Of a stretch of 64,000 nucleotides of DNA, positions 26,185 to 61,059 are shown piece after piece. The notes beneath the pieces are model-generated. The model had not been told where the DNA came from. It searched no databases and saw only the letters and a list, made by a program, of their open reading frames with translations. Positions within the stretch are counted from its first letter, which is position 1. Each line of letters starts with the position of its first letter. This DNA is from Acidobacteriota bacterium (GTDB lineage: Bacteria; Acidobacteriota; UBA890; WLXD01): contig CBDFKD010000002.1 of NCBI GenBank assembly GCA_965248695.1, positions 3,776,001-3,840,000 on the forward strand, read 5' to 3'. The position numbers were made by a program, and so were the translations under genes.

Positions 26185-26191
26185 TCGACTA

Positions 26192-28500: not shown

Positions 28501-28507
28501 CGGCCGG

Positions 28508-29718: not shown

Positions 29719-29730
29719 GACGTCCGTCGC

Positions 29731-30429: not shown

Positions 30430-30536
30430 CTCGGACTCCAAGGGACCGGGCACAATTTTCGGAGCGAATTCTAGCACCGCGACGCCAGGCGCGCGGCGCG
30501 TCTCCGTCGTCCCTTAGGTGGCCGGCAGACGCCGGT

Positions 30537-33471: not shown

Positions 33472-33483
33472 CGGCGCGCGCCC

Positions 33484-34485: not shown

Positions 34486-34501
34486 CGTCTCTTCCTCCTT
34501 C

Positions 34502-36919
34502 CTACAGGTGGGCCGTGGGGCGTCGGAACGGTGCGGCGGGAATGCTCTCGAGCTCTGCCATGATCATCTCGGTCGTAATCGGCGTTCGGTTGAAGGCGGC
34601 CGCACCGAGTGCGTCCTGGATAGCGCAGGCGACAGCGCCAGCGCCGGCACCTACCGGCGGCTCTCCGATCCCCTTGACGCCCACTGGGGTCTGGGGATCA
34701 GGCTGATCGACAGCCCCCCATTGGACGTCGAGCGGGATGTCCAACATCGTCGGCGGCTTCGCCATGTGGAAGCCCTTCGTAAACGGCACGCCCCACTGCG
34801 GGTCGTACACCCATTTCTGGCTCACGGCGACGCCGAATCCCTGGATGCTCCCACCGTAGATCTGTGACCCCAGGCTGCGCGGATGCAGGATGGTTCCGCA
34901 GTCGGTCGTACCGACGTACTCGACGATGTCCATCTGCCCGGTCTCGACGTCGATCTCGACGCGCGCGAAGCCGATGACCCAAGAGAACGTCGAGCCCTCG
35001 CGACCGAAGTCGTCCTTGGCCACTCCCATGAGGCCTTGTCCCGCGAGCCCCGCGGCCGCTACGGCGGTCGCGGCGTTGATATCCTCCGGCGTCTCGTGGC
35101 CGTCGTACGTCCCCCCGAGCGCCACTGCGCGGCGTGCCGCCGCCGCGAAGCTCATCGAGCGAGAACGGTTCGAACGGCTGGTTACCCGACCTCCGCCGAC
35201 GTCGTAGTCGCTTGCCGAACCGCCGAGGTCGCGTGCCGCGATCTCCTGCAGCTTGCGCTTGGCATCCAGGCCGGCTGCGTAGTTGGCACGCGTGTGGGCG
35301 TGGGCGGTCTGACTCCCGGCCTGTACGGCGCTGTATGGCAAATGACGCGCCGAGCTCCCCCAGACGATCTCGACCTGCTCCCAGGGCATGTCGAGGACTT
35401 CCGCCGCGGCTCGGGCCGTATCGGCGACCGAATGCGTGCCGAGGTTGCCGATGCCCTGATGGACGCGCAGCTTGCCGTCTTCCTTCAGGACGACCAAGCC
35501 GTCGTAGCCGATGCTGCCGCCAACGAACGGGCTCACCGCTACGCCGACGCCGGTCACCTTGGTGCCGTCGCGCTGGCCGCTCATCTGGCTCTTGGATTCC
35601 CAATCGAAGAGCTCGGCGCCCATATCGATCGCCTCGCGAACGAAGGCGCTGGTCAGCGTCGCCTGGCCCGGTCCGAACCGGCTGTCCTTGTCGGCGGCGT
35701 TGATTCGCCGCATCTCGACGCGATCGACGTCGAGTTGTCGCGCCGCCCGATCCATCAACGGCTCGAGCATGGCCACTACCTGTACGCCGCCCGGCCCGCG
35801 CTGGGCGGATCGCGGCGGCGTGTTGGTGAGCACCGTGACACCGCGGAAGCGCATCGTCAGGGGCGTATACGCCAGCGAGCCGATGGTGCCGGCGGTGAAC
35901 ATGTCACCCTGGCGTCCGTACGGCCCGTTGTCCTGCACGATGAACAGATCGAGAGCGGTCAGACGGCCATCGGCGCGCCAACCCATCTTCACTTGTGCCT
36001 GAAAACCGCAGCGGGCCCGACCGATGTAGTTCTCCTCGGCACGGGTGACGCGGTACATGACCGGCTTGCCGGTCTTGCGTGCCAGCAGCGCCGGGATCGG
36101 CATGTTGACGGTGCCGGCGATCTTGCTGCCGAAGCCGCCACCGCAGTACTCGGCAATGAATACGACGTCGGCTTCGTCGATGCCTACGCCGCGCGCCACG
36201 GAACCAGCGGTGCGCTGGGTGCTCTGCGTCGACCCATGCAAGTACAGCTTGCCGTTCTGCCAGTACGCCATGCAGCTGCGGGGCTCGAGCGGATGGTGCG
36301 TCAGTGACTGATGCACGATGGTCTCGTCGAGCACGAAGTCGGCTTCCGCGAAGCCCTCTTCGAGGTCGCCCACCTCCCACTCGGCGTTCACCTCGCCAAT
36401 GGGGAGCCCGTCGCCGGCGTTGTCGAACGCCTCGGCGGGCCACTTGATCGACTGCAGGTTCGTCTCACCTTCCTCGCGCACGAAGCTATTGCCGCCCACC
36501 CGGGCGTCCGGCCCGTCGGGACGCAGGCTGTCGAGCGGGTCCACCACGAACGGCAATGGCTCGAAATCGATCTCGATGCGCTCAATGGCCTCTGCAGCCG
36601 TGGTTTCGTCGACCGCGGCGACCGCCAGGATCGCCTCGCCCTCGTACAGCGGCTCCATCGTGAGCGCGCGCTCGGCGTATGGGTTGTCGTTCGGCGGCAG
36701 ATCTTCGGCGGTGATCACGCCTTCGACGCCGGGCATTCGCAGCGCGGCGCTGGCGTCGATGCGGGTGACGCGTGCGTGTGGCATCGGGCTCGACAGGACC
36801 TTGGCGAACAGCATGCCTTCGGCACGGAAGTCCTCGGCGTACTTCGCCTTGCCGGTGATCTTCGCCACCAGGTCGGGCGGCACGATGTCCTCGCCGATGA
36901 GCTTCCAGGGCCCGGCCAT
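34502..36919 (-). CDS. Xanthine dehydrogenase family molybdopterin-binding subunit
   Basis: KITGKAKYA, SPMPHARV, GGGFGSK, QRGPG, AGSQT, KGIGEPP (catalytic Glu). Confidence 0.93.
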   Translation of the reverse strand: MAGPWKLIGEDIVPPDLVAKITGKAKYAEDFRAEGMLFAKVLSSPMPHARVTRIDASAALRMPGVEGVITAEDLPPNDNPYAERALTMEPLYEGEAILAVAAVDETTAAEAIERIEIDFEPLPFVVDPLDSLRPDGPDARVGGNSFVREEGETNLQSIKWPAEAFDNAGDGLPIGEVNAEWEVGDLEEGFAEADFVLDETIVHQSLTHHPLEPRSCMAYWQNGKLYLHGSTQSTQRTAGSVARGVGIDEADVVFIAEYCGGGFGSKIAGTVNMPIPALLARKTGKPVMYRVTRAEENYIGRARCGFQAQVKMGWRADGRLTALDLFIVQDNGPYGRQGDMFTAGTIGSLAYTPLTMRFRGVTVLTNTPPRSAQRGPGGVQVVAMLEPLMDRAARQLDVDRVEMRRINAADKDSRFGPGQATLTSAFVREAIDMGAELFDWESKSQMSGQRDGTKVTGVGVAVSPFVGGSIGYDGLVVLKEDGKLRVHQGIGNLGTHSVADTARAAAEVLDMPWEQVEIVWGSSARHLPYSAVQAGSQTAHAHTRANYAAGLDAKRKLQEIAARDLGGSASDYDVGGGRVTSRSNRSRSMSFAAAARRAVALGGTYDGHETPEDINAATAVAAAGLAGQGLMGVAKDDFGREGSTFSWVIGFARVEIDVETGQMDIVEYVGTTDCGTILHPRSLGSQIYGGSIQGFGVAVSQKWVYDPQWGVPFTKGFHMAKPPTMLDIPLDVQWGAVDQPDPQTPVGVKGIGEPPVGAGAGAVACAIQDALGAAAFNRTPITTEMIMAELESIPAAPFRRPTAHL

Positions 36920-37566
36920 CAGTCTGCCTCCGCCGGCACGCCTTCACGGGTGTAGCGAGCGGCTTCCATGGCGCAGTCGAGGATCTTGTGATAATCGCAA
37001 CACCGACAGAGGTTGCCGGACAGCGCGTGCGCGGCCTCCTCGCGTGTCGGATCGGGATTGTCGGCCACCATCGCCGTCATGCTCATGATGAACCCCGGGG
37101 CGCAGAAGGCGCACTGGAAGCCGCCGCCGTCGACCACCGCTTGCTGCACCGGGTGCAGCTCGCCGGTGGGGCTGGCGAGACCCTCGATCGACGTCACCTC
37201 ACGTCCTCGGACACTGTGCGTCAGCACCGAGCAGGAGTAATGGTTGACGCCATTGATCAACAGGGTGCAGGCGCCGCATTCGGCGCGGTCGCAGCCCAGC
37301 TTGGTGCCCGTGAGCCCGAGCTTGTAGCGCAGGGTCATGGCGAGCGTTTCTTGCGGCAGAATGTCCACCCGGCGTTGCTGGCCGTTGATGTTCAACGTGA
37401 CGAGGCGCTCCACAGCGCCGGCCGCGCTTTGTGCCGTCGCAGTTCCCGCACCGCGGAAGAGATACGCTGCGGATGACACGGCGGCGCCGCTGGCGATCAC
37501 TCCCTTGATGAAGTTCCTCCGGGAAACGGCTGGATCGACGTCGGTGATGATCTCCACCTCAGACAT
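36919..37566 (-). CDS. (2Fe-2S) subunit with Tat signal (PaoA/YagT-like)
   Basis: SRRNFIK twin-arginine leader; GTKLGCDRAECGACT, QCAFC, GNLCRC. Confidence 0.92.
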   Translation of the reverse strand: MSEVEIITDVDPAVSRRNFIKGVIASGAAVSSAAYLFRGAGTATAQSAAGAVERLVTLNINGQQRRVDILPQETLAMTLRYKLGLTGTKLGCDRAECGACTLLINGVNHYSCSVLTHSVRGREVTSIEGLASPTGELHPVQQAVVDGGGFQCAFCAPGFIMSMTAMVADNPDPTREEAAHALSGNLCRCCDYHKILDCAMEAARYTREGVPAEAD

Positions 37567-43156: not shown

Positions 43157-43357
43157 ATCGAGAAAGGCGACTACGCCGACCTCGTCTTGTTCGACCCGGC
43201 GACGGTGATCGATCGCTCCACGGTCGAGGAGCCGCACCTTTCGTCGGCCGGAATTGATACTGTCTGGGTCAACGGGCAGATCGTGTACCAAAACGGAGAG
43301 ACCACTGGGAACCGGCCCGGGATGCCGATTCGCCGGGTTTCCGAAGGAGGAGGATGA
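43157..43357 (+). pseudogene. 3' fragment of N-acyl-D-amino-acid deacylase (amidohydrolase)
   Basis: Hand translation: IEKGDYADLVLFDPATVIDRST.EEP....GIDTVWVNGQIV...G.RPG; stop overlaps the next ATG. Confidence 0.78.
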
Positions 43358-44517
43358 TGTCTGAGCGCATGACGCGCCGCGCCGCGACGAAGGCCGGTGC
43401 GATCGTCGCCGGATCGATGGTGGTCGGTGTGCCGAATTGGGCGCTGGCCGCGATGTCGCAAGACGAAACGGTTCCGTTCACCGACATGCCGGACGGGTTC
43501 GAAACCAACCCGACGCCAATCGTTCGGTTCGTAGATATCCGCGAGATCGACGAATTCTTTACGCCGGCCGACCAGTTCTTCACCGTTCAGCACTACGGGC
43601 ATCCTGAAGTGGACGCCGCGACCCACGAGCTCGAGATCAGCGGGCAAGTGTCGCGGCCTCAGAAGCTGTCTATGGCGGACATCCGTCGACGCCCGCGCAC
43701 GGAGCTGGCCTGCGCGTTCGAGTGCTCCGGCAACAGCCGCCGCCGCTTCCACGGGCTGGTCAGCAACGGCCGCTGGGGCGGTACGAGTCTGCGCGCGTTG
43801 CTCGACGAGGTGGGCGTCGAGCCGGCCGGCAAGGAAGTGGTCTTCTTCGGTGCCGATGTGGGAACCGAGACGATCGAGAAGCGGGGTAGTAGCTGGCTGG
43901 TCGATCAGCAATACGCCCGCAGCATGTCGCTCGAAGACGCCATGCGCGAGGACACCGTGCTGGTGTACGAGCTCAACGGCGAGCCGCTGAGCATCCATCA
44001 GGGAGCGCCGCTGCGGCTGATCATCCCGGGCTGGTACGGCGTTGCCCAGGTCAAATGGCTCAAGCAGATCCACGTGCAGGAAGGCCGATTCATGGGCAAG
44101 TTCATGGCCAACCACTACGTCACGCTGACGGCCAAGCAGGTGGGAGGCAGCCTCAAGTACATGGAGACCTCGGTCACCCGCATCCAGCTGAAGTCGGCCA
44201 TCGCCCGGGTCACGCGCGCTGCCGACCATCACACCGTGCACGGGTTCGCCTTGACCGACGGGACGCCGCTGGCTCGGGTGGAGGTGAAGATCGACGACGG
44301 GCCCTGGGAGCAAGTGACGCTGGATCCGCGCAATACGAAGTACTCCTGGAAGCTCTTTGCCTACCGTTGGGAAGGTGCCACGGCAGGGGAGCACACCGTC
44401 GTGTCGCGCGCCATCGATGCGAATGGCAGGGTACAGCCGGTGCTGGAGGACCTGGCCGAGAAGAGGACCAGCTGGGAGAACAACGCCCAGTTCGCGCGCA
44501 CGGTAATGATCTCGTGA
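43354..44517 (+). CDS. Sulfite oxidase family molybdopterin oxidoreductase
   Basis: FECSGN Mo-Cys motif, YARS, HQGAPLRLIIPGWYG..VKWL, SRA.D..G..QP; TRR-containing leader (Tat-like, non-canonical). Confidence 0.9.
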   Translation: MMSERMTRRAATKAGAIVAGSMVVGVPNWALAAMSQDETVPFTDMPDGFETNPTPIVRFVDIREIDEFFTPADQFFTVQHYGHPEVDAATHELEISGQVSRPQKLSMADIRRRPRTELACAFECSGNSRRRFHGLVSNGRWGGTSLRALLDEVGVEPAGKEVVFFGADVGTETIEKRGSSWLVDQQYARSMSLEDAMREDTVLVYELNGEPLSIHQGAPLRLIIPGWYGVAQVKWLKQIHVQEGRFMGKFMANHYVTLTAKQVGGSLKYMETSVTRIQLKSAIARVTRAADHHTVHGFALTDGTPLARVEVKIDDGPWEQVTLDPRNTKYSWKLFAYRWEGATAGEHTVVSRAIDANGRVQPVLEDLAEKRTSWENNAQFARTVMIS

Positions 44518-49243: not shown

Positions 49244-52123
49244 TCAGAAGGAAAGTCGTGCCCCGAGCCGAAACTGCCGCCCGGGCAGCAGACGTGTAGA
49301 GTCGCGGGGCAGCCCGACGCTGGAGAGTCTGTTGCCTTCGGCGTCGCGCTCAAGGCTGAACGTTCGGTCGATTCGATCTCTGACGCTGGTCGGGGAGAAG
49401 TCGTTGAGCATGTTGAACCCGTCGACCATCAACTCGAACCGGCCATTCCCAAAATTAAAGGACTTCGAGAGCCGCAGATCGAGCTGCCTATGCGAATCCC
49501 ACCGCCTGCTGCGAACCTTCTCGATGTTTGTGCTGCCGTAGGCGGCGTTGAGCAATTGGGGAATCCCCCTGGATCCGTGCCTGACCTTGAGGTTCCACGG
49601 CCGACCCGACGCCAAGTTCCAGTACATACCCAAGAGGATGTCTCCGGGCAGCCTGTAGTTGCCCAGTATCTTCCAGCTCCACGTCCTGCTGAAGCGCAAC
49701 GGACCCGACTCGGAGAAAGGGTGGCCGTTGAAGTTCGGGTTGTCTTCTTCGTCGAAGCCCCTACCCCAGATGGTCTGGCCGTCGCCATTCTCTATCCTTC
49801 CCTCGTTGTTCTGGTAGGTGAGCGAGGTGCTGAAGTTGAGGCCGGAACCCGTTCGCCGTCGGTCCAGCGACAGCGTCACGATGTTGTGCCACCGCACATA
49901 GTAGTCGCTGTTATCGAAGACGTTCTCGATAGCGCCGCTGGGTTTCGAGTAGAGCGTCTGCGTCGTCGGCGTATCGAGGAATCCGGGCACCACCGGGCTG
50001 GTGTATTCGAAGGGCGTAAACACATGGTCAATGATGTCGTTGTAGATGAACATGTTGCTGTCATCTTTGCGGATGTAGTCGAGACCCACGATCCAGTCCC
50101 TGACTAATTCATACTCGAATCCGAAATTGAAGACATCCGTGTGCGTCGACTTCAAGCCGGGGGTGATCGGAAAGATATCGGCGTCGAACGAAGTCCGGTT
50201 CGCGAGTTGGAAGACAGCGTCTTGCAGCGCTAACGCTTGCGCGTCGGTCGGGTTGAACGGGTCGTAGTCGGCAGGGAACATACCGTCAGGTATTGCGAAG
50301 AAGAACCTCTGGTTGGGTTCGTATGGGTCCGTGAACGCGCCGCCGGTGGCTCTCGAGACGTGTCCGATGGAGATCTTCTCGAAGTAGCGCCCCCAGCTGC
50401 CATGGAACACGGCACGGCCATCACCGCTCACATCCAAGGTTGCACCAAGGCGTGGCGCCAAGTTGTCGTACCTGTCTACCTGAGCCCCAACCACCCCACC
50501 CTTCATGTCGTAACCGGTCGTCCGGTCAAAGCGCAGCCCGAGGTTGAGGGTGAGCTTGTCGCTAGCGGTAGCGTTATCCTGGATAAAGGCCGACTGGCGT
50601 AGCATTCGGGCCTCGAGGCCACGGTTGGAGATACGCCCATATACGTTGGAGCCATAGGTATACATGGCCCCTCTACCGGTAATCTTAGCAATCCAGGTGG
50701 ACCAAAGGTCGTTGTAGTCGAGACCGACCTTGAGGTCATGCGCGGCGCCCAGGAAGTCGTCGACGTACTGGGTCACCGTTGCCGTGACATTTTTCGAGGC
50801 GTTGTCCTCGTCCTCCACGAAGCCACGGGTGAGCCTCCGCGACCCGCTGAACCAATAATCCGGTATGTCGCAGCACACGAGCGGGATGCGCAAGAAGTCC
50901 GCCCTATTGTATGCGAGGCGGAGATCGGTGAAGGTGTTGTCGCCCAGTTGGGATTGCCAGGTGAACAACGCGGTCGTGCTGCTGTACTCGGTATCCATGG
51001 CGACGTCGAGCGGCGAACCTGGTCGCAGGTCGATGTTCGACTGGCCGCCCGGATCCTGGTTGATCATGAACCCGAACGTGTTGGTGTCGTTGAGCAAGAA
51101 ATCCAGCTTGCCGTGCAGTGCCCACCTATCGTTACCCTGCTGGGCATCATCGACGGCGATTCCACCGTTCTCCCAGAACGAGTCGGCGGCAATCGAATCG
51201 AGCTTTTCTTGACGGGAGACACCGGCAAAGAACAGCAGCTTGTTCCGCGCAATCGGGCCACCGACAGAGGCGGCAACCTCGCGGTCGTAGGAGAACTTTC
51301 CGCGCTCGAGATCCACGATGCCGCGCGAGTTGTCGGTTCTCAGAGAGCCGTTCTGCCAGTAGTAAGAGCCCGAGCCATGAAACGCGTTGGTGCCCCCCTT
51401 GGTCACAATATTGACCATCGCGCCAGTGAAGTGGCTGTACTCGGCGCTGGCGCCGATACCGACAATCTGGATCTCGGCGATCGTCTCCACGTTCGGGTTG
51501 ACAAAGGTGAGACCCCAGTCCAGCTCGTTGATGTCAACGCCGTTGAGCCGGTAGCCGTTGGTTGCGGCACCTTGCCGATGCACGCTAGTGCCCTCGGAGT
51601 GGTTGCCGCCGGCGCCATAGGCTCCCTTGTCGGCGAAACCAGCGGCGAAGTCGGTCATGTTGGCGAACTCACGCGCCACCGGAACGTTTTCCAGCAGATC
51701 CGCGCCGTATGACGTCGTAAGCGATGCCGACTCTATGTCGATCAACGGCGTCTCGGAGACGACTGTGACCGTCTCTGCGACCCCCGCCAGCTCCAGTTCC
51801 GCAATCACGGTTGACGCCGTGCCGACGTTCACCGGGACGTTGTAGGCTATCGTTTGGAACCCGGTGAGCGAGACCGTGACGATGTACATTCCCGGCCTGA
51901 GATTACGAAACCGGAAGTTGCCCGAGACGTCGCTTACCTCCGAGACAGATACCTGGATGAGGTTGTCTCCCTCGAGGGTGACGGTGGCGCCGGGCAGCCC
52001 CGCACCATCCACGTCCCGAACCACTCCGGCGATATCCCCCTGCGTCCGCTCACCCTGCGCCATCGCCTGCGCGGGGAGTATCAGGAGCATGGCAACAGTC
52101 AAGACGGCAAGCTTGGCGCGCAT
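49244..52123 (-). CDS. TonB-dependent receptor with carboxypeptidase-regulatory-like N-terminal domain (Oar-like)
   Basis: AGGAGG RBS, signal peptide, LPGATVT, VNIVTKGGTN.FHG, LNLGLRFD, APRLG, terminal GARLSF. Confidence 0.92.
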   Translation of the reverse strand: MRAKLAVLTVAMLLILPAQAMAQGERTQGDIAGVVRDVDGAGLPGATVTLEGDNLIQVSVSEVSDVSGNFRFRNLRPGMYIVTVSLTGFQTIAYNVPVNVGTASTVIAELELAGVAETVTVVSETPLIDIESASLTTSYGADLLENVPVAREFANMTDFAAGFADKGAYGAGGNHSEGTSVHRQGAATNGYRLNGVDINELDWGLTFVNPNVETIAEIQIVGIGASAEYSHFTGAMVNIVTKGGTNAFHGSGSYYWQNGSLRTDNSRGIVDLERGKFSYDREVAASVGGPIARNKLLFFAGVSRQEKLDSIAADSFWENGGIAVDDAQQGNDRWALHGKLDFLLNDTNTFGFMINQDPGGQSNIDLRPGSPLDVAMDTEYSSTTALFTWQSQLGDNTFTDLRLAYNRADFLRIPLVCCDIPDYWFSGSRRLTRGFVEDEDNASKNVTATVTQYVDDFLGAAHDLKVGLDYNDLWSTWIAKITGRGAMYTYGSNVYGRISNRGLEARMLRQSAFIQDNATASDKLTLNLGLRFDRTTGYDMKGGVVGAQVDRYDNLAPRLGATLDVSGDGRAVFHGSWGRYFEKISIGHVSRATGGAFTDPYEPNQRFFFAIPDGMFPADYDPFNPTDAQALALQDAVFQLANRTSFDADIFPITPGLKSTHTDVFNFGFEYELVRDWIVGLDYIRKDDSNMFIYNDIIDHVFTPFEYTSPVVPGFLDTPTTQTLYSKPSGAIENVFDNSDYYVRWHNIVTLSLDRRRTGSGLNFSTSLTYQNNEGRIENGDGQTIWGRGFDEEDNPNFNGHPFSESGPLRFSRTWSWKILGNYRLPGDILLGMYWNLASGRPWNLKVRHGSRGIPQLLNAAYGSTNIEKVRSRRWDSHRQLDLRLSKSFNFGNGRFELMVDGFNMLNDFSPTSVRDRIDRTFSLERDAEGNRLSSVGLPRDSTRLLPGRQFRLGARLSF

Positions 52124-52367
52124 TCCACACCTCCTGGGCAACTCGTCACCCGGGGCAACGGCGTCGCCCGACATTGAATTGACTAATGCTTCAGAAGGTG
52201 GTATTAGCATCGTACAGTAACCTCTGTCAACGGCCTGACCCGAATTGACCCAAACCCCGAAAACCTCTGCCAGAAGACGTCGTTGACTTTTGACAGACCC
52301 CATGGTAATAGCGCTTCATCTATGCTTGCATACAGGTATCTGAACGTCTTGGCCGCCGGAGGATGGT

Positions 52368-53900
52368 ATGAGCAAGAACAAAAAGGAGAACAAGCGAAAG
52401 AAGGTCAGCCGTCGCGACTTCGCCAAGACTTCGGTTGCGGCAGGAGCAGCTGCGGTGGCGCTTCCCAAGGCGCTGCGTGGTGAAACGCTGGCTACGAAGG
52501 GAACGTCGGAAGCAGCAAAAGCCGCGGCAGCCGCACCTCGGGGCCCGATCACGATGCCGCCCGAAGTGACGTATGGCGGCGAGGATTTTGACGGTCGCGA
52601 TGTGCTGCTGGAGGACATCATGTCGCCACCCGGCGAGGCCCCCAGCTATCCGGGCGGGTGGCAAGAAGGAACCACGATTCCGGCCGAATACTACCTCGAC
52701 GAGAAGCACTGGCTGAACGAAGAGCGCTTCCTGCAAGATCATTTCTGGTTCATGGCCGACCATGAGAGCCGCATTCCCAATCCGGGCGACTACTTCGTCT
52801 TCGAGTTCGGCCGTGGCGGCAGCCTCATCATCACGCGCGCCAACGACGGTGCCGTGAAGGCCTACCACAACGTCTGCCGACACCGCGGATCGCGGCTCTG
52901 CCTGCACGGTTTCGACAAGGACCTGCCGGGCGAGGCGACGCTCGACGGCAAGCCGGTGGACTCGCGGCTGTCGGTAGCCCAACAAGGACCGAGCGGTAAC
53001 ACAGCGGTCTTTCGTTGCCCGTATCACGCCTGGACCTACGATCTCGACGGCAAGCTGATCTCGGCGCCGACCGGGATGCCAGAGGGGTTCGAACAAGACC
53101 AGCACGGCCTGCACCCGGCCCACGTGCAGATGGTCGAAGGCTTCATCTTCGTCAACCTGGCCGACGAAGAACCAGCGGGCTTCGACGACTTCGTGACCAG
53201 GTGGCGAGGGGTCTGCGAGTTCTATGGAACCGCGAATCTGAAAGTAGTAGCTCGCAAGCAGTACCCGACGAAGGCGAACTGGAAGCTGGCGGTCGAGAAC
53301 TTCCAGGAGTGCTATCACTGCGAGCCGGCGCACAAGTCGTTGGTGATGGTCCAGTGGTGGCAGCAAGCGCACGTGATGACCCCCGAGCAACGCGCCAACC
53401 TCGAGCAGGAACTGGTGAGCCACGAGCACTTGGAGCGGCAACAGGACAACGCGAACCAGAGCAGCTACACGATGAACCGCCACCTCTCACCCGGCTTCGT
53501 CACCGGCAGCCTCGATGGCAAGCCGGTGGCGCCGCTCATCCTCGACGAGTGGACGCATCAGCGGCGCGGCGCAACGACCGGTTTCTCGACGTCGTTCTTC
53601 GCCGCCTACGACGACCACATCGCGGTCGCCCGCTTCACCCCACGAGACATACAGTCGACCGATGTCGAGATCTTCTGGCTGGTCAAGGGCGACGCCAAGG
53701 ATGCAGAGGTGGACGTGGAGCGCATGATGGAGCTCTGGGACGTCACCTACCGAGAGGATCTATGGATCGTCGAGAACAACCAGCACGGCATCCAGAACAG
53801 TCGCTACAACTACGGCGGCGGGCAACCGTACGCCACGCGAGAAGGGGGACCGGCCGGATTCATCAAGTGGTACATGACCGAGATCGCACCGCACGCGTAA
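52368..53900 (+). CDS. Rieske non-haem iron oxygenase alpha subunit (GbcA/CntA-like group) with twin-arginine leader
   Basis: CRH...CPYH Rieske ligands; NWKL..ENFQECYHC...H and ED...E mononuclear Fe site; N-terminal SRRDFAK plus an Ala-rich h-region. Confidence 0.9.
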   Translation: MSKNKKENKRKKVSRRDFAKTSVAAGAAAVALPKALRGETLATKGTSEAAKAAAAAPRGPITMPPEVTYGGEDFDGRDVLLEDIMSPPGEAPSYPGGWQEGTTIPAEYYLDEKHWLNEERFLQDHFWFMADHESRIPNPGDYFVFEFGRGGSLIITRANDGAVKAYHNVCRHRGSRLCLHGFDKDLPGEATLDGKPVDSRLSVAQQGPSGNTAVFRCPYHAWTYDLDGKLISAPTGMPEGFEQDQHGLHPAHVQMVEGFIFVNLADEEPAGFDDFVTRWRGVCEFYGTANLKVVARKQYPTKANWKLAVENFQECYHCEPAHKSLVMVQWWQQAHVMTPEQRANLEQELVSHEHLERQQDNANQSSYTMNRHLSPGFVTGSLDGKPVAPLILDEWTHQRRGATTGFSTSFFAAYDDHIAVARFTPRDIQSTDVEIFWLVKGDAKDAEVDVERMMELWDVTYREDLWIVENNQHGIQNSRYNYGGGQPYATREGGPAGFIKWYMTEIAPHA

Positions 53901-53984
53901 GCCGGCCTCCGTTCGCTTGGTCCATCACCGCAGGCGTGCTCTGAAGCTCACAACCGAAGGGGCGCCCTGACTCGAGGAATAGGT

Positions 53985-55949
53985 ATGCGCGATCGTGGAC
54001 TCGGAATGGACCGCAATATCACCCGGCGCGACTTAGTCAACGGCGTGAGCGTCGCTGTCGGCGGTGCGATGGCCTTGCCGGCCAGGCTTCGCGCCGCAGG
54101 CGTCAGCCAGGCCCACGCCCCCGAGAAGGCAACCGACTATTACCCGCCGGCCCGTACCGGTATGCGGGGATCGCACCCCGGTTCGTTCGAGGCGGCCCAC
54201 GCCGCCCGCGACGGCGTCACGTGGGATGACGCCGAGGACACCGGCGAGACCTACGACCTGATCGTCGTCGGCGCCGGCCTCAGCGGTCTGGCGGCGGCGT
54301 ACTTCTTCCGCAAGGCGACGAGCCCCGACGCCCGCGTGCTGATCCTCGAGAACCACGACGACTTTGGCGGCCACGCCAGGCGCAACGAGTTCGAGCACGA
54401 CGGCCAAGTGCTGCTGGTGACCGGCGGCACGTCTTACATGGTGACGCCGGAGCGCTACCCGCTGGCGGCGCGGGAGATGCTCCAGGATATCGGTGTCGAG
54501 CTGGATCATCCTACCAACAACGTCCATCGAGGGATGTTCAGGGAGTTGGGGCTGGAGCCAGCCGTTTTCTTTGGCAAGGAGAGCTTCGGGAAGGACGTCC
54601 TGGTCAACGGCAGCGTCCGGCGACCCACGGAGGAGTTCCTCGCCAAGACGCCGCTCACTGAGCCGATACGCCGGGACCTGCTGCGGCTCTGGAACGACCG
54701 GCGCGACTATCTGCCGGGGCTGTCCAGGGCGGAGAAGATCCAGCGGCTTCAACGCATCAGCTACCGCGACTACCTGCTGGATGTCGTCCAAGTGCATCCG
54801 GACGTGCTGCCGCTGGTTGGTGGGGTCTGGTGTCTGGGCGCCGATACCTCGAGCGCGTGGTTCGCCCTCTATCGCGGCCTGCCGGGCTTCCAGGGGCTCG
54901 GCTTCGAGGTTCCGCCGGAGTCACCGGCCCACCCGGACCACGACACCACCGACGTCTACTTCCCGGCCGGCAACTCCGACATCGCGCGGATGATCGTGCG
55001 CTCGTTGATCCCGGCGGCCCTACCAGCGGGATCGATGGCGAGCGTCGAGCTCCGGCGAACCAACTACTCGAAGCTTGACGAGCCGCACCAGCCCGTGCGT
55101 CTGCGGCTCAACAGCGCCGCCGTCCGCGCGCAGCATGTCGGCGATCCACCGCAGGTCTTGAGCTCGGACTCCCGCGAGACCGAGATCACCTACGTCCGCG
55201 GTGGCAAGGCCTACCGGGTGCGCGGCAAGGGCTGTGTGTTGGCCTGCTACCACACCATGATCCCGCACCTGTGTCCCGAGCTTCCATCCGAGCAGAAGGA
55301 AGCGCTGAGCCTCGCCGCACGCGCCGTGAATATGTCCACCAACGTCCTGGTGCGCGACTGGCGGGCACTCGAGGAGCTCGGCGTCTCCAGCGTTTCGTGT
55401 CCGGGCTCGTTCTACAGCGCCATCCGCCCTCGCGCACCGATCACGCTCGGGACTTACGATCCACCGCGCACGCCCGCCGACCCGATCGTCGTCTCGCTGG
55501 GGGCTGGCGGAGGGGTGCTCTCCTGGGAACCGATGGTTCGCGGCCTACGCCGCGGCGAGCCGATCCCCCCGGACACACCGGTTCGGGATCAGATGCGAGC
55601 GGTGCGACAAGCGCTCCTGGAGACATCCTTCGAGGACTTCGAACGACGGATCCGCGACCAGATGGCGCGGGTGCTGTCGCCGGCGGGCTTCGACCCGGCG
55701 CGCGACATCGAGGCGATCACCGTGAACCGCTGGCCGCACGGCTACGCCCTGGCGACCAACACGCTGTTCGATCCGGAGTCGCCTCCCGGCGAGGAGCCCT
55801 GGAAGGTCGCCAGTCAGCCCTTCGGGCGGATCACGATCGCCAACACCGATGCCTCGGGGATCGATCTCACCCAGACCGCCTTCGACGAGGCGCACCGCGC
55901 GGTCGGAGAGCTCATGCAGATGCGCCACGGCTGGTTCCCGCGGATCTAA
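53985..55949 (+). CDS. Spermidine dehydrogenase (SpdH)-like FAD oxidoreductase with Tat leader
   Basis: ITRRDLVNG, YYPP..TGMRGSHPGS, VGAGLSG, ENHDDFGGHA.RNEF, ITVNRWPHGYA. Confidence 0.85.
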   Translation: MRDRGLGMDRNITRRDLVNGVSVAVGGAMALPARLRAAGVSQAHAPEKATDYYPPARTGMRGSHPGSFEAAHAARDGVTWDDAEDTGETYDLIVVGAGLSGLAAAYFFRKATSPDARVLILENHDDFGGHARRNEFEHDGQVLLVTGGTSYMVTPERYPLAAREMLQDIGVELDHPTNNVHRGMFRELGLEPAVFFGKESFGKDVLVNGSVRRPTEEFLAKTPLTEPIRRDLLRLWNDRRDYLPGLSRAEKIQRLQRISYRDYLLDVVQVHPDVLPLVGGVWCLGADTSSAWFALYRGLPGFQGLGFEVPPESPAHPDHDTTDVYFPAGNSDIARMIVRSLIPAALPAGSMASVELRRTNYSKLDEPHQPVRLRLNSAAVRAQHVGDPPQVLSSDSRETEITYVRGGKAYRVRGKGCVLACYHTMIPHLCPELPSEQKEALSLAARAVNMSTNVLVRDWRALEELGVSSVSCPGSFYSAIRPRAPITLGTYDPPRTPADPIVVSLGAGGGVLSWEPMVRGLRRGEPIPPDTPVRDQMRAVRQALLETSFEDFERRIRDQMARVLSPAGFDPARDIEAITVNRWPHGYALATNTLFDPESPPGEEPWKVASQPFGRITIANTDASGIDLTQTAFDEAHRAVGELMQMRHGWFPRI

Positions 55950-55951
55950 GT

Positions 55952-56331
55952 GGCGTTGGTGCATGGCTCGGAGCTAAGGGGAGCTTCCCCGTCCTCCGAG
56001 AGGGGTTCACGCCACTCGGTAGCTGTCGGGCATCCCGAGACGAGCCATCGTATTGAGGATCCTGCACGCAGGTCGCACTTCCACGCGTTGGCCCACCAAC
56101 GTGCGACTCCGCATGTCTCGGGCGATGATCGTCTTGTATCGATAGATCGCGTTCTCGACCATGGCGCGCTTGCTATAGCCGGCCCGACTCGTACTCAGGC
56201 CAATTGCGAATCCGATATCGAGACTTCGCGTACTTGTACTGGCTCCGTTTCGGGTACTTCATGGGTGGCAACTCCAGATCGGGGACCTTGCCACGATGAT
56301 GCACTGAGATCAGGAGCCATGCACCAACGCC
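55952..56331 (-). mobile_element. Internally deleted IS5-family (IS903 group) element, 380 bp
   Basis: Perfect 18-bp TIRs GGCGTTGGTGCATGGCTC; transposase N-terminus (YRIRNWPEY) joined to its C-terminus (GYSKRAMVENAIYRYK...LN.M..LGMP.S). Confidence 0.85.
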
Positions 56332-56433
56332 CCGACGAGCGTCGCGAGCGCCGGTCGTGATGGGAGTGTCGCTACAGCCCAAGGGCCAATATGATGTCGC
56401 TATCCGGTCTCGAAAAATCGTCGTGAGGAAATT

Positions 56434-56649
56434 ATGTTCGGCTCGATCGGGGGCACTGAGCTGCTCATCATCCTGGTGATCGCGCTCGTGGTGTTCGGCC
56501 CGAAGCGTCTGCCGGAGCTGGGACGCACGATTGGCAAGGGTCTGAGTGAGTTCCGACGAGCCTCGAACGACCTGAAACGCTCGCTTGAAGATGAGATCAC
56601 GCTCGATGAGCACCGCAGCGAGCGGACGGGATCTCGCGATACTGACTGA
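56434..56649 (+). CDS. tatA: Twin-arginine translocase TatA/TatE subunit
   Basis: IGGTELLIILVIALVVFGPKRLPELGRTIGKGL.EF; GAGG RBS. Confidence 0.92.
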   Translation: MFGSIGGTELLIILVIALVVFGPKRLPELGRTIGKGLSEFRRASNDLKRSLEDEITLDEHRSERTGSRDTD

Positions 56650-56747
56650 GCGGGTGGACCGACTGAGCGAGTGGTCGGAGTAACCGCGCGGTGAGCGAGT
56701 CTGAAGGCGCGACGATGGCCGCCGACCAGTCGGGAGCTGGCCGGAGC

Positions 56748-56777
56748 GAGACACTACCAGCTTTTCGGTAGTGTCCC
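56748..56777. other. 11-8-11 inverted repeat, possible recombination core site or abutted IS ends
   Basis: GAGACACTACC-AGCTTTTC-GGTAGTGTCCC; the same GAGACACTACC occurs at 38938-38948. Confidence 0.45.
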
Positions 56778-57048
56778 ATTATGAAAGTCACTGAAAGTCA
56801 GTTTGGCACCGATTTTGCGGACGTTTCGGGTGGCACTTGTGGCCTGCTAGCCTTTGTAGCGGGGTCGAAAGCGTGCAGGGGTAGGAGTGAGCGCGGGAGA
56901 TGATCACCGACTACGAGGCGGGCCGAATTTCGGCGTATGCCGAGTGGGTAGCCTGGGGCACCTCTTCGGTTACAGCACCGACGCTGAGCGTAGACTCCAT
57001 CACCATCAGAGCGACGGCGACACGGGTCACCGCGATTACTGGTGTTGA

Positions 57049-58320
57049 TGACCTGCCCCCCAATAATCGGGCCAGTCTGAGAGTTTAGGATTTGAGGCTC
57101 TCAGGATGGCGCGGGAAGGGGGAAGAATGGCGCGGAAGCGGTACACTGTAGAGCAGATCATCGCCAAGCTCAGGGAGGCAGAGATCGAGCTAGCGAAAGG
57201 GGCCAAGACACCGGAGGCATGCCGCAAGCTGGGAATCAGCGAGAACACGTACTACCGGTGGCGTAAGGAGTACGGCGGCCTGAGGGTGGATCAGGCGAGG
57301 CGACTCAAGGAGCTGGAGCGCGAGAACGGCCGGCTCAAGAAGCTGCTGGCGGAGACGATGCTCGACAACGCCATCCTCAAAGAGGTGTCGTCGGGAAACT
57401 TCTGAGCCCGACACGTCGACGTCGGGCGGTGCAGAAGGCGCAGCAATCGCTGGGTGTGTCTGAGAGGCGAGCCTGCAGAGTGCTGGGCCAGGTGCGCTCG
57501 ACGCAGCAGTATCGAGCCAAGGTGCCGCAACAGGAGACGGCGCTGGTGGAGCGGATGACCCAGTTGGCGATGCAGTACGGGCGCTACGGATACCGGCGGA
57601 TCACGGCTCTGATGGTGCGGGAAGGGTGGCGAGTGAATCACAAGAGGATCGAGCGGTTATGGCGTCGTGAGAGGCTGAAGGTACCGAGAAAGCAGCCCAA
57701 GCGCCGACGCTTGTGGCTCAACGATGGATCGTGCGTGCGACTGAGGCCGGAAAGGAAAGATCACGTCTGGGCCTACGACTTCGTGCACGAACGAACTCAC
57801 GACGGGCGAGCGCTTCGTCTGCTGACGATCGTGGATGAATACACCAGGGAGTGCTTGGCCATCGATGTGGCGCGCAGACTCAACTCCGAGGATGTGTTGG
57901 AGCGACTCGCTGAGCTGTTCGTGAACCGTGGAGTTCCGGATCACATCCGCTCCGACAACGGACCGGAGTTCACTTCTCGGGCAGTGCGTGAGTGGCTCGA
58001 GCGGATCGGCGTGGGGACGCTGTTCATCGAGCCCGGTTCGCCATGGGAGAACGGCTACGTGGAGAGCTTCAACGGCAAGCTCCGCGACGAGCTGCTGAAC
58101 GGCGAGATCTTCTACACGCTCAAGGAGGCGCAGTGCTTGGTGCACCGCTGGCGCCGCCAGTACAACCAGGTGCGGCCCCATAGCTCGTTGGGCTATCGAC
58201 CGCCTGCACCCGAAGCGACGTTGTTGCAGCCGGCTACGCTCCGCTTCGCCAGCTCCAACAATCTCTTGCCAGTACCGATTCTATGAGTTACGAAGTGGCC
58301 CAAACACTTGGGGCAGGTCA
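57049..58320 (+). mobile_element. IS3-family insertion sequence, 1272 bp
   Basis: TIRs TGACCTGCCCC...GGGGCAGGTCA (TG..CA ends); orfA/orfB arrangement; no target duplication visible. Confidence 0.92.
57127..58286 (+). CDS. IS3 transposase OrfAB (programmed -1 frameshift)
   Basis: orfA 57127-57405 (HTH); slippery G_GGA_AAC at 57393-57399; orfB in the -1 frame with YGYRR, WAYDF, SDNGPEF, ESFNG DDE motifs. Confidence 0.9.
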
Positions 58321-58539
58321 GCGAGATCTTCTACACGCTCAAGGAGGCGCAGTGCTTGGTGCACCGCTGGCGCCGCCAGTACAACCAGGTGCGGCCCCAT
58401 AGCTCGTTGGGCTATCGACCGCCTGCACCCGAAGCGACGTTGTTGCAGCCGGCTACGCTCCGCTTCGCCAGCTCCAACAATCTCTTGCCAGTACCGATTC
58501 TATGAGTTACGAAGTGGCCCAAACACTTGGGGCAGGTCA
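58321..58539 (+). repeat. 219-bp tandem duplication of the IS3 right end
   Basis: Copy of 58102-58320 including the right TIR; identical as far as can be read by eye. Confidence 0.9.
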
Positions 58540-59018: not shown

Positions 59019-59570
59019 CTAGCCGAGGTTGTCTTGCACCCCCGGGCTGGCCTTCGAGTAATCCTGCATTCCCTTCACCAACAAGTATGCACCCACGGCT
59101 AGCGGCAGTACCGGCCACCAGCTCTCGATCCATTCGAGCGAGTAGCCGAACAGCGTGTGCGACAAGGCCAGCGCGCCGAACGTCACCAGGATTCCACCGC
59201 CGACGATCGAGCCGCCCATCGCCGGCATCTGGAAATCTTCCGGTAGCTCGATTTTCTCGGTTCCGGTCGCAGCGTGGTTATAAAGCGCCGCCAGGCGGCC
59301 GGCGTCGATGACGTTGAACAGCCAGAAGAAGAACGTCGCGAACCCGGGCATCGGTTCGAGGCTATTGGGCGCGTTGTTCGCGACGGTGAGGAGCATCAAG
59401 AACACACCTCCCAACACGAAGCCACGCGTGTAGTAGCCGATGTAGATTTGACCGAGCCCCGGGGCGACGGACAGGAGCGCCGCCATGCGGGGTGACTTGC
59501 GTCGCGGATCGAAAAGTTGCCGTGCAGCGTACTGCTGCGGCTGCTCAAGCTGAGGCGTCGATGGTTCCAT
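59019..59570 (-). CDS. Membrane protein of the ECF cluster (TM2/LiaF-like segments)
   Basis: KSP.MAALLS..PGLGQIY.G; C-terminal WWPV....G..L; co-oriented with the anti-sigma gene. Confidence 0.7.
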   Translation of the reverse strand: MEPSTPQLEQPQQYAARQLFDPRRKSPRMAALLSVAPGLGQIYIGYYTRGFVLGGVFLMLLTVANNAPNSLEPMPGFATFFFWLFNVIDAGRLAALYNHAATGTEKIELPEDFQMPAMGGSIVGGGILVTFGALALSHTLFGYSLEWIESWWPVLPLAVGAYLLVKGMQDYSKASPGVQDNLG

Positions 59571-60495
59571 CGTTCTGCTCTCTTGTCTGCTCACCGGGAT
59601 CGGCCAACCCCAGCACCCGTAGGCGCAGGCGCTGCATCGACTCGATGATCGGGTTCACATGATCTCGCCAGGTCGTGGCGATTCGGTCTTCGCTGGCGCG
59701 TCGCCAGCATCGGGCAAAGTCAGACAGGGTCGAGGCAGTGCCGCGCCCTGAGTCACAAACGTCGACATAGTCGACAAGCCGCTGCGCAGACTCCGTCCAC
59801 CTGCGCCCGCCGACAGCGGTCAACTGGTACGCCCCCGCAGCTACCGTCTGCCGCATCTCGACGCCCTGCTGCTCGAGCTCGGTCAGCAGGCGCGGCGGCA
59901 GCTCGGCCAGAGGAGCACCGGGGAAGCCGACGAACAGAAACAACGCGAAGGTCCCCGCGTAGGCGCCCTCCAACGCTAACCGGGGCCGTCGCGCGAACGC
60001 CTCCCACACCGATCCGCGCGCCGATGCCCCTGACCCCGACCACCAGCGAGACCATGCGCGCCCGAGCCCGGAACTCGTGGTCTTCGTCACAGTTGCGGTC
60101 ATCACCTCGGTGACGAAATCACCGTCCGGCTGTAGATCAGCCAGCTGCGGCAACTCGAGCCTCAGGCGCTCGAGCGCACGCGACAGTCCGCGACAGTCGA
60201 GACAGTTCGCCAGGTGCGTCTCCAGGGCGTCGTCTGCCTCGAACAGGGCGGCGCCGGCTCGTTCGGAGCACAGCTGCTGCGCGCGGCCACAGGGACTTCC
60301 CGAAGTTGCCGCCAGGATCGCCGCTGCCAGGTCGGCCGGCGCGACCGCGGAGGCATGCCCTTCGAGCACCGCCGCCTGCAGCGCTCGACACTCACGGCAG
60401 TCCGAGGCATGGGCTCGCATCGGCTCTCGCTCGGCACCGTCAAGGGTCCCCTCGAGCTGCTCGAACAACGCCTCTTCGAAGCGTGCGCAGTCCAT
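59545..60495 (-). CDS. Zinc-finger (zf-HC2) anti-sigma factor
   Basis: C...HASDCREC and a second C...HLANCLDC motif, then a TM segment; directly downstream of the ECF sigma gene. Confidence 0.8.
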   Translation of the reverse strand: MDCARFEEALFEQLEGTLDGAEREPMRAHASDCRECRALQAAVLEGHASAVAPADLAAAILAATSGSPCGRAQQLCSERAGAALFEADDALETHLANCLDCRGLSRALERLRLELPQLADLQPDGDFVTEVMTATVTKTTSSGLGRAWSRWWSGSGASARGSVWEAFARRPRLALEGAYAGTFALFLFVGFPGAPLAELPPRLLTELEQQGVEMRQTVAAGAYQLTAVGGRRWTESAQRLVDYVDVCDSGRGTASTLSDFARCWRRASEDRIATTWRDHVNPIIESMQRLRLRVLGLADPGEQTREQNDGTIDASA

Positions 60496-60498
60496 CGG

Positions 60499-61059
60499 TC
60501 AGATCCCGAACGACGGGTCGAGCTCGAGCATGCGGCGGGCGAGCTCGAGTCGGGCCCGGTTGGCTCTCGCCTTGACGGTGCCGAGCGGAATCGAAAGCAG
60601 GTCGGATATCTCGCGTTGCTTGAGGCCCTGGATCTCCTTCAGAAGGATCATCTCTCGATTGATCGGGCTCATCTGGTCGATCGCCCGGCGCATGGTTTCG
60701 TGTCGCTCGCCGGTGATGCTGGCGGCTTCGGGGCCGGGCGCGTGGTCCGGGCCGGCCGGCCGGTCGTCGATCGGCGTACCGTCGAGCGCCGGTCGCGCCT
60801 TGAGGTGACGCAGCCGGTCGATGCTTGCGTTGCGGGCGATGCGGACGGCCCAGGCGAGGAAGCTGCCGCCTCGATCGAAACTCGCGAGGCCCTTGTAGAT
60901 GTGGACGAAGGTCTCCTGGGCGACATCGCGCGCCTCTTCGCGATCGTGAAGGTAGTGGTAGGCCACGGCAAACACCCGCCCCTGAAAGCGACGCACCAGC
61001 GCCTCCCAGGCGAGCTCGTCGCCTCCCCGGCAGCGCGCGATCAGCGTCTCGAGTTCCAA
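60499..61059 (-). CDS. ECF RNA polymerase sigma factor
   Basis: GD..AW..LV, A.DVAQETF, F.AW..RIARN..ID, EI...L.IP.GTVK.R..RAR. Confidence 0.93.
   Translation of the reverse strand: MELETLIARCRGGDELAWEALVRRFQGRVFAVAYHYLHDREEARDVAQETFVHIYKGLASFDRGGSFLAWAVRIARNASIDRLRHLKARPALDGTPIDDRPAGPDHAPGPEAASITGERHETMRRAIDQMSPINREMILLKEIQGLKQREISDLLSIPLGTVKARANRARLELARRMLELDPSFGI

Follow-up and report, generated by a model that had tools for sequence, protein, structure and literature searches.

Predicted export of a Rieske oxygenase paired with an SpdH-type dehydrogenase in an uncultured Acidobacteriota bacterium

To our knowledge, every characterised Rieske oxygenase has been described as dependent on a reductase or ferredoxin chain that draws on NAD(P)H. 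The solved members of group V demethylate or cleave quaternary and N-methyl amines, and Stc2 (3vca, 4qup), CntA (6y8j), GbcA and 3n0q (substrate unknown) have in common with the oxygenase treated here an alpha-only fold consisting of a Rieske and a catalytic domain. The gene of this oxygenase lies directly ahead of a gene for an SpdH-type dehydrogenase with flavin adenine dinucleotide (FAD) and haem b, within positions 49,244-56,649 of a 64,000-nt window, by which we mean the whole stretch of DNA that was analysed (Acidobacteriota bacterium, CBDFKD010000002.1, 3,776,001-3,840,000). The home genome (G000), from a soil-type uncultured Acidobacteriota, is 5.89 Mb in size and 96% complete. Both proteins begin with predicted leaders for twin-arginine translocation (Tat), and on balance we lean towards reading the module as a whole as an exported oxygenase-dehydrogenase pair that is powered from the periplasm.

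The small subunit of arsenite oxidase is a Tat-exported Rieske protein. Another is the Rieske subunit of cytochrome bc1, a [2Fe-2S] protein that is likewise assembled in the cytoplasm and moved by Tat (PMC6085387). Both, however, are small, high-potential carriers that pass electrons on to cytochromes and lack a mononuclear iron domain, whereas in the present case an entire oxygenase alpha subunit would leave the cytoplasm, and it must receive electrons. The kinds of enzyme at this locus are known; the predicted export, the Rieske insertion and the missing reductase are what is new. In agreement with a first-pass annotation of the window, made from the letters alone, which knew of no described example, we found no account of an exported or Tat-dependent Rieske oxygenase in Creative-Commons PMC papers and bioRxiv full text, and a word search of the text of a 2025 Perspective on Rieske oxygenases returned none of the words periplasm, signal peptide and twin-arginine. 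A published account of an oxygenase gene beside an SpdH gene was likewise not found in the open full-text literature.

The oxygenase and its SpdH-like neighbour

All four genes called in the first-pass annotation were present, at the places assigned to them, in the list of open reading frames (ORFs) of the window. The features of the gene pair are as follows.

52368..53900, + strand: Tat-leader Rieske non-haem-iron monooxygenase, alpha-only, of group V type, 510 aa (Pfam, alignment and fold)
52368..52484, + strand: predicted twin-arginine leader, residues 1-39 (Lys-rich n-region, SRRDFAK, h-region TSVAAGAAAVALP, basic c-region KALRGE)
52539..52667, + strand: family-specific N-terminal extension, residues 58-100, PPEVxYGG ... 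YPGGWxEGTTIP (alignment consensus)
52875..53027, + strand: Rieske [2Fe-2S] motifs C170-x-H172 and C217-x-x-H220 with a 44-residue spacer (invariant ligands)
52902-52988, + strand: Rieske insertion relative to solved relatives, about residues 179-207 (the alignment with 3n0q breaks between 178 and 208)
53307..53333, + strand: mononuclear-iron motif E314-C315-Y-H317-C318-x3-H322, comprising the bridging Glu, the group V Cys pair and two His ligands (alignment)
53985..55949, + strand: Tat-leader SpdH-type FAD/haem b amine dehydrogenase, 654-aa ORF with likely start M8 at 54006 (PDB homology)
inside 53985..55949, to about 54119, + strand: predicted leader of the SpdH-like protein, ending SQAHA|PEK (start at M8 assumed)
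54198..54200, + strand: codon of His72, equivalent to the haem b axial ligand His54 of PaSpDH (counted from the alignment)
55737..55739, + strand: codon of His585, equivalent to the haem b axial ligand His562 of PaSpDH (alignment)

The oxygenase matches the Pfam families Rieske (5.4e-13) and Ring_hydroxyl_A (PF00848, 5.6e-27). Its N-terminus reads MSKNKKENKRKKVSRRDFAKTSVAAGAAAVALPKALRGE, and with GGAGGA standing 4-5 nt ahead of the ATG, the start at 52368 is well supported. We found that C170, H172, C217, H220, E314, C315, H317, C318 and H322 are invariant in a 46-sequence family alignment in which identity falls to 52%, and the invariant D464 is, by its position, the putative carboxylate ligand of the 2-His-1-carboxylate iron site, to which H317 and H322 contribute the two His ligands. 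According to a description of CntA, a bridging Glu and a Cys-x-x-Cys pair near the iron (E205, C206 and C209 in that enzyme) mark the group V quaternary-ammonium Rieske monooxygenases (PMC10952381). Since the segment E314-C315-Y-H317-C318 fits these marks and the ligands are intact, the protein looks like a working group V member that would use two electrons per turnover. The motif ECYHCxPxH recurs in 16 of the 18 Tat-type paralogues of the home genome; one of the other two is an N-terminal pseudogene fragment that stops before the motif, and in the second the pattern search caught an earlier match.

Among curated models the GbcA equivalog NF058607 was the nearest, but the oxygenase, with 228.3 bits, does not reach its cut-off of 670. 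The nearest solved relatives by sequence were 3n0q, Stc2 and CntA (phmmer 2e-45 to 1e-28), identity to the solved group V members being 22-28%, and the same three proteins were the top Foldseek matches of the fold model (3n0q, 2.3e-32; Stc2, ~1e-30; CntA, ~1e-24). In this model, which has a mean predicted local distance difference test score (pLDDT) of 82.6, residues 1-57 score below 50 and are predicted to be disordered, the extension (residues 58-100) scores 74-91 and the Rieske insertion 87-94. Compared with group V enzymes, the Rieske ligands, the two iron-binding His residues, the bridging Glu and the Cys-x-x-Cys pair are all kept, whereas a twin-arginine leader and a linker/extension of ~60 residues are added and the spacer between CxH and CxxH, 16-18 residues in group V, is 34-44 in the Tat clade. 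A comparison of paralogues showed the N-terminal extension to be present in the long subtype and mostly absent in the short subtype.

The downstream protein aligns with SpdH over its full length (PDB 7d9f/7d9j; E 4.9e-120, query 11-643 to chain 2-619) and matches the Pfam families NAD_binding_8 (4.7e-13, FAD-binding motif) and Amino_oxidase. In PaSpDH, as described in PMC12564564, the haem b axial ligands are His54 and His562, haem b takes up electrons from FAD, and the surface haem passes them directly to an electrode, with an onset at about -0.14 V vs Ag/AgCl. The equivalent H72 and H585 are invariant in all 16 aligned homologues. Near its start the ORF has ITRRDLVNG (motif TRRDLVN), with the RR conserved among homologues, and the leader of the P. 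aeruginosa protein, PA3713, is listed among the experimentally validated Tat substrates of that organism (PMC6085387). The first-pass identification of an SpdH-like gene with an RR leader is thus borne out, and on its sequence the gene is a true SpdH homologue, resembling P. aeruginosa SpdH (PA3713; 7d9f-7d9j) in full-length homology, FAD motif, both haem His residues and the N-terminal RR leader. The residues 'LGM' ahead of M8 in 16 of 16 homologues read as a Shine-Dalgarno sequence and a start, so that M8 (54006) is most likely the initiating residue, and from there the predicted leader runs MDRNITRRDLVNG...SQAHA|PEK. The home genome differs from the described case in holding 26 full-length SpdH-like genes (one with an in-frame TAG) and one split in two; because these ~27 paralogues are 41-82% mutually identical, their substrates surely differ and would not be spermidine/spermine alone. 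A passage of PMC12564564 calls the substrates of SpdH homologues unidentified.

The leader, the Rieske insertion and the gene pair across genomes

The first-pass annotation had assigned the RR leader to the oxygenase and had named a true start downstream of the motif as an objection. We found that R15, R16 and F18 are invariant in the 46-sequence alignment and that the RR motif lies within the first ~30 residues in 114 of the 120 best database homologues (47-98% identity); taken with the GGAGGA before the ATG at 52368, this speaks against a later start, and the leader belongs to the oxygenase and is kept in close and distant homologues. The six records without a leader start later, three of them within the hydrophobic region or immediately behind it and three at points still further on, and two of the six had been flagged by the pattern solely through a second, internal RRRR stretch. 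With SRRDFAK, a moderately hydrophobic h-region and a basic c-region, the leader fits the Tat pattern (motif S/T-R-R-x-F-L-K). It passes the cut-off of NCBIfam TIGR01409 (17.2 bits against 16.7) and falls just under that of Pfam PF10518 (TAT_signal; 20.5 against 22.7). The motif, h-region and basic c-region are kept across the family, the linker behind them being variable, and among the 18 Tat-type genes in the home genome 17 begin with the leader; the remaining one has the long spacer, and an integrase gene interrupts its 5' end. The genome encodes Tat machinery (three tatA/B and two tatC genes, the tatA/B copy at C2:4930246 adjoining tatC), and the oxygenase, as a predicted Tat substrate, is very probably exported. 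A 1469-aa open frame around the oxygenase in genome G038 proved to be an overlap artefact, the gene there having its own leader KSVNRRDFARTT.

Among 88 oxygenase ORFs from related loci, the long Rieske spacer (34-44 residues) was found in all 20 that bear a leader, and a short spacer of 16-18 in 66 of the 68 leaderless ones, with exceptions of 34 and 55 residues. The insertion that goes with the leader is 17-27 residues long. FastTree analysis of 103 core sequences placed all 38 long-spacer rows in one exclusive group, and an IQ-TREE quick search, run on 70 rows with the insertion columns dropped (the complete set of 38 long-spacer rows plus 32 of the 64 leaderless ones, taking every second), put this group on one side of a branch with an SH-aLRT of 100. 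Since the long-spacer rows form one exclusive group in both trees, the leader and the insertion appear to have arisen together, once, at the electron-entry domain. The insertion in the Rieske loop may adapt the oxygenase to a new donor, either by docking or by tuning of the potential.

We found that the neighbourhood of oxygenase and SpdH-like gene, noticed at this one locus in the first-pass annotation, recurs far above chance in the home genome and in other genomes. Specifically, 7 of the 18 Tat-type oxygenase genes of the home genome lie within 500 bp of an SpdH-like gene and 12 within 8 kb, against expected means of 0.34 and 1.5 from 2000 random placements. Elsewhere, an SpdH-like gene stands directly downstream in 9 of the 18 Tat-type loci of other genomes (L001, twice; L002-L006; L011; L027; L029) and within the flank in a further 4, and a distant SpdH-like gene was present in 1 of 70 leaderless loci. 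A genome from a different family within the phylum has an SpdH-RO-RO operon (RO, Rieske oxygenase), and two module pairs have been duplicated as units in the home genome (79/82% and 84/81% identity). In L001, from the closest relative genome, a second tandem pair, 91-92% identical to the window proteins, follows the first (6001-13530), at the place where the window has tatA and remnants of insertion sequences (IS). A Mantel comparison of the oxygenase-SpdH partners gave r 0.65, with 11 of 720 permutations as high. We take the oxygenase-SpdH pair as the conserved core of the module, the receptor as a local addition and tatA as a chance neighbour; of the neighbourhood proposed at first, the RR leader and the SpdH-like gene are conserved, whereas the TonB-type receptor is found only in L001 and L002.

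A profile search found the Tat type in metagenome-assembled genomes of Acidobacteriota and in one Binatia contig, and leaderless loci, at 30-38% identity, in Proteobacteria, Bacteroidota, Actinomycetota, Chloroflexota and others. When 401 Acidobacteriota genomes were sampled evenly, eight had a match at E <= 1e-60, namely all five of the window's genus (G000 included) and three of two other genera. Among 1.84 billion representatives at 50% identity, 912 proteins matched the profile at E <= 1e-30, and of the best 150 of these 912 matches 17 had a long spacer and 112 a short spacer and no leader. The Tat-type clade is compact and almost only acidobacterial, and a database and cluster look-up found neither a cultured source nor an informative public name for it.

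The densest cluster of paralogues (L021; G000:C2:5607001-5627000) contains a DAO flavoprotein with an RR motif, two CxxCH proteins of 423-428 aa, an oxygenase, an SpdH-like gene, three tandem oxygenases and another SpdH-like gene. At L003-L006 and L022, which represent the paralogous locus type, an Amidohydro_3 gene and the oxygenase-SpdH pair are preceded by a conserved gene whose product of ~700 aa matches no Pfam family, with isochorismatase-type and M28 peptidase genes downstream. The CxxCH proteins of 420-490 aa and the 700-aa proteins near the paralogues gave sub-threshold Pfam matches only.

Electron supply of the oxygenase

Neither a ferredoxin nor an NAD(P)H reductase is encoded within 49244-56649, and elsewhere in the window Fer2 is matched twice, by the RACo corrinoid activator and by the PaoA-like subunit of a Mo hydroxylase. 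FNR-type, plant-type ferredoxin and Pyr_redox_2 domains (PF00175, PF00970, PF00111, PF07992) were found neither in 106 neighbour ORFs at 11 paralogue loci of the home genome nor in 121 neighbour ORFs at the 18 Tat-type loci of other genomes; at L023, NuoF-like and Fer2_4 molybdopterin-enzyme subunits are encoded 1-5 kb off the oxygenase. The home genome gave a single NAD_binding_1 (PF00175) match and 14 Fer2 matches, none of them at that ORF. Because the PF00175 ORF lies beside genes for dihydroorotase, aspartate carbamoyltransferase and PyrR (gene names read from N-termini) and has a C-terminal Cys cluster, it appears to be PyrK-like; five other genomes with Tat-type oxygenases have one or two NAD_binding_1 matches each. 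The cognate GbcB-type reductase elsewhere in the genome that the first-pass annotation had allowed for was therefore not found: the home genome has no reductase of CntB/GbcB type (FNR-like plus [2Fe-2S]), Pyr_redox_2-type reductases not having been surveyed genome-wide. In this the locus differs from the CntA and GbcA systems, as it does in the exported enzymes that neighbour the oxygenase. A 153-aa Rieske ORF at C2:4092316, considered as a periplasmic Rieske ferredoxin, is a truncated fragment of a leaderless oxygenase.

A periplasmic enzyme has no access to NAD(P)H. For this reason, and because the genome has no FNR/GbcB-type reductase, an exported oxygenase must be supplied by a donor in the periplasm with the two electrons that each turnover takes, and we consider it likely that its electron supply is periplasmic and does not come from NAD(P)H. 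From the locus and its relatives we infer export, the electron path and the substrate class, the last of which would be amine. Specifically, the two genes would form an operon and both proteins would be exported folded by Tat; the receptor would import a nitrogen compound; the SpdH-type dehydrogenase would oxidise a C-N bond and reduce its own haem b; electrons would run from the substrate through FAD and haem b to the Rieske cluster and the mononuclear iron; and the oxygenase would hydroxylate or demethylate the same compound or its pathway neighbour, the pair needing O2 and no external reductant.

Of the conceivable donors the SpdH-like protein is the likeliest, but that it feeds the oxygenase directly is a suggestion we put forward tentatively. 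With the same reserve, one may picture a self-sufficient periplasmic monooxygenase, in which the flavohaem dehydrogenase, reduced by substrate or product, would feed the Rieske cluster through its surface haem b, so that imported nitrogen compounds would be demethylated or cleaved at a C-N bond with O2, without NAD(P)H, ferredoxin or reductase; the insertion would then serve in docking or in tuning the potential for the haem donor, and the ~18 oxygenase and 27 dehydrogenase genes would make up a combinatorial toolkit. A haem b donor has a precedent in CMP-N-acetylneuraminate hydroxylase, a eukaryotic Rieske monooxygenase fed by cytochrome b5. That system, however, still runs on NADH by way of b5 reductase on the cytosolic side of the membrane, and is unrelated in family and compartment.

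Several observations weigh against an exported pair powered in this way, in addition to the genome-wide survey that left out Pyr_redox_2-type reductases and the points given below for a general electron pool. Rieske clusters of oxygenases usually lie at about -150 mV versus the standard hydrogen electrode, and the onset of PaSpDH (-0.14 V vs Ag/AgCl) is well above this, so that transfer from haem b would be uphill unless the cluster is tuned; the inserted Rieske loop is a candidate for such tuning. The SpdH-like leader, with 13.6 bits, is under the TIGR01409 cut-off of 16.7. SpdH-like genes are missing from the flanks of 5 of the 18 Tat-type loci elsewhere and from within 8 kb of 6 of the 18 oxygenase paralogues of the home genome, and the oxygenase 2904139 is 82% identical to another paralogue although the adjoining SpdH-like proteins are just 48% identical. 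No oxygenase fused to a redox partner was found among longer proteins, a blank that is weak evidence; the single longer protein found, of 910 aa and 33% identity, is an oxygenase fused to a sodium:solute symporter domain, with no link to a redox partner. The lack of an adjacent reductase, on which the first-pass annotation relied, is true at the locus but says little by itself, since most leaderless relatives are without one too: of 27 leaderless loci examined as a control, with 110 ORFs, 23 had no reductase-type gene within 2.5 kb, FNR-type genes occurring at none and any flavin or pyridine-nucleotide reductase at 4, and we dropped this absence as a distinguishing mark. Expression of the pair, a point in its favour, is weakly supported. 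Four metatranscriptome libraries from two studies contain contigs that are 95-100% identical to 52898-53980, an RNA contig of 837 nt spans 53297-54135, from the end of the oxygenase into the start of the SpdH-like gene, and an RNA-library contig of run X19 covers 52225-52385; such contigs hide strand and ends, and carry-over of DNA is possible.

An alternative that we regard as rather doubtful is that the exported oxygenase is fed by a general periplasmic pool (c-type cytochromes, dehydrogenases dependent on pyrroloquinoline quinone (PQQ) or other cofactors, or an unrecognised carrier), the SpdH-like protein being the next or previous step of the pathway and passing its own electrons to the respiratory chain. 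At L023 (9746-10357, - strand) and L024 (9603-10109, - strand), a gene for a small cytochrome c (PF13442) comes directly after the oxygenase, with a PQQ dehydrogenase upstream and no SpdH-like gene, and these may be alternative partners; PQQ dehydrogenases and CxxCH proteins also recur near the paralogues of the home genome. In addition, ~17 SpdH-like genes are not beside an oxygenase, so that the dehydrogenase does not need the oxygenase, and the partner pairs are not strictly co-evolving. Against a pool, however, adjacency to an SpdH-like gene is the strongest recurrent signal, no cytochrome c gene adjoins the pair in the window or in L001-L006, and typical cytochromes c are even higher in potential than the haem b of SpdH, which would make transfer no easier.

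Two further explanations do away with a periplasmic donor altogether. The RR stretch could be non-functional or otherwise used, the enzyme being cytoplasmic and served by a generic reductase and ferredoxin encoded elsewhere. It is common for redox partners to be unlinked (the 23 of 27 leaderless loci above; native partners are often not colocalised, according to the 2025 Perspective), and the genome has 14 Fer2-domain matches together with whatever Pyr_redox_2-type reductases a genome-wide survey would add. Yet the motif, h-region and c-region are conserved where the linker behind them varies, the leader passes a curated cut-off (TIGR01409) and is predicted to be disordered and outside the fold, the genes around it also encode Tat or Sec proteins, the origin of the leader was a single event that coincided with a change in the electron-entry domain, and the sole FNR-family protein is PyrK-like; we therefore consider a cytoplasmic enzyme improbable. 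Still less probable, in our view, is a peroxide shunt, in which the exported oxygenase would use H2O2 supplied by the neighbouring flavoprotein or other periplasmic oxidases and need no donor. SpdH does have the flavin amine oxidase fold (Pfam Amino_oxidase), but the SpdH-like protein keeps both haem b ligands, the mark of a dehydrogenase and not of an H2O2-forming oxidase; the Rieske ligands and bridging Glu, for which a shunt-only enzyme would have no need, are invariant; and turnover by this route is slow in known enzymes. The shunt itself has been shown for CntA (PMC10952381).

If the reading as an exported pair powered from the periplasm is right, the module would represent a new way to power Rieske oxygenase chemistry and would widen the known Tat cargo to a large trimeric enzyme with iron-sulfur and non-haem-iron centres. 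It would also provide a first functional context for many SpdH homologues of unknown substrate, and would point to one Acidobacteriota lineage as specialised in breaking down organic nitrogen oxidatively in the periplasm. Reductase-free or dehydrogenase-coupled oxygenases might then be of use in biocatalysis and in electrode-driven catalysis, the haem b of SpdH being described as already communicating with electrodes.

The receptor, tatA and the wider surroundings

The remaining features of the module stretch are these.

ORF 49244-52303, likely gene 49244..52123, - strand: TonB-dependent-receptor-like outer-membrane protein (Pfam and orthologue start)
52124..52367, no strand: divergent intergenic region, 244 bp (with the GGAGGA 4-5 nt ahead of the oxygenase ATG)
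56434..56649, + strand: tatA/E-family gene, 71 aa (Pfam TatA_B_E, 8.9e-20)

The receptor ORF (1019 aa) matches the Pfam families CarboxypepD_reg (3.3e-15) and OMP_b-brl_4 (1.6e-30) and, marginally, TonB_dep_Rec_b-barrel (PF00593; 28 bits against a cut-off of 27); of the 22-strand barrel and the N-terminal plug with a TonB box that define TonB-dependent receptors, a barrel is thus matched, but no PF07715 Plug match was found at E <= 0.01, and weak matches to FepA models lie at residues 272-318. Because the L002 orthologue begins at the methionine of MRAKL, MRAKLVILTVAMLLILPAQAMA, the receptor most likely starts at M61 (~52123), from where it carries a Sec-type leader, MRAKLAVLTVAMLLILPAQAMA. 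Its divergent position, as first annotated, is confirmed, but it is conserved only at L001 and L002, the closest orthologous loci, where a likewise divergent gene encodes an orthologue (98% and 93%, respectively); L003-L006 have none. The receptor probably brings in the substrate in the window and at L001 and L002. A scan of 51900-57200 for sigma-70-like promoters and terminators gave nothing exceeding shuffled sequences, a result that is uninformative as a negative.

The tatA gene that the first-pass annotation had placed in the system is indeed there, 485 bp past the SpdH-like gene, between a transposase fragment and an IS3 element. As a part of the module it had to be given up: no tatA match was found in any related locus searched, the six orthologous loci L001-L006 included, and the gene is one of three TatA/B-family genes of the home genome. 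Because it is not conserved and lies among IS remnants, and because another copy stands by tatC, we take it as a chance neighbour. The debris of mobile elements extends over 56173-58505 and comprises a transposase-like fragment (~56173-56260, - strand) and IS3 orfA (57106-57405) and orfB (57429-58286), followed by a 65-aa ORF (58308-58505) in which the C-terminal portion of orfB is repeated.

Genes that recur near the Tat-type paralogues encode amidohydrolases, peptidases of families M28, S15, M19 and M24, isochorismatase-type hydrolases, PQQ dehydrogenases, a DAO flavoprotein with an RR motif, an aminomethyltransferase and a POT transporter. The leaderless relatives sit among genes for DAO-GCV_T fusions (of dimethylglycine/sarcosine-dehydrogenase type) and class III aminotransferases. 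Both settings suggest organic nitrogen compounds, with no single one named.

Elsewhere in the window, 24580-30477 holds a corrinoid methyl-transfer set, consisting of an MttB-family methyltransferase (24580-26184), RACo (26476-28632, - strand), a pterin-binding methyltransferase (28508-29407, - strand) and a B12-binding corrinoid protein (29731-30477, - strand). In the case of non-pyrrolysine MttB relatives, such sets demethylate quaternary amines of the glycine betaine type. If the MttB set here demethylates quaternary amines, the organism would have a second, cytoplasmic route.

A PaoABC-like periplasmic Mo hydroxylase is encoded at 32614-37566 (- strand), with a Fer2_2 subunit bearing an RR leader (VSRRNFIKG), MoCoBD and FAD_binding_5 subunits and then a cytochrome b561-type membrane protein. 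At 43354-44517 (+ strand) there is a SorA/SoxC-like molybdopterin oxidoreductase with an RR N-terminus, MTRRAATKAGAIVAG, which scores below the cut-offs of the NCBIfam sulfite dehydrogenase models and has an orthologue a few kb from the oxygenase pair in L002. By a simple pattern, ~120 of 4613 crude ORFs of the home genome have a putative Tat-like N-terminus, an unusually large predicted Tat secretome that includes both expanded families. Finally, an ECF (extracytoplasmic function) sigma factor (60499-61059) and a zf-HC2 anti-sigma factor (59545-60495) are encoded together at 59545-61059 (- strand), 3 kb downstream of the module.

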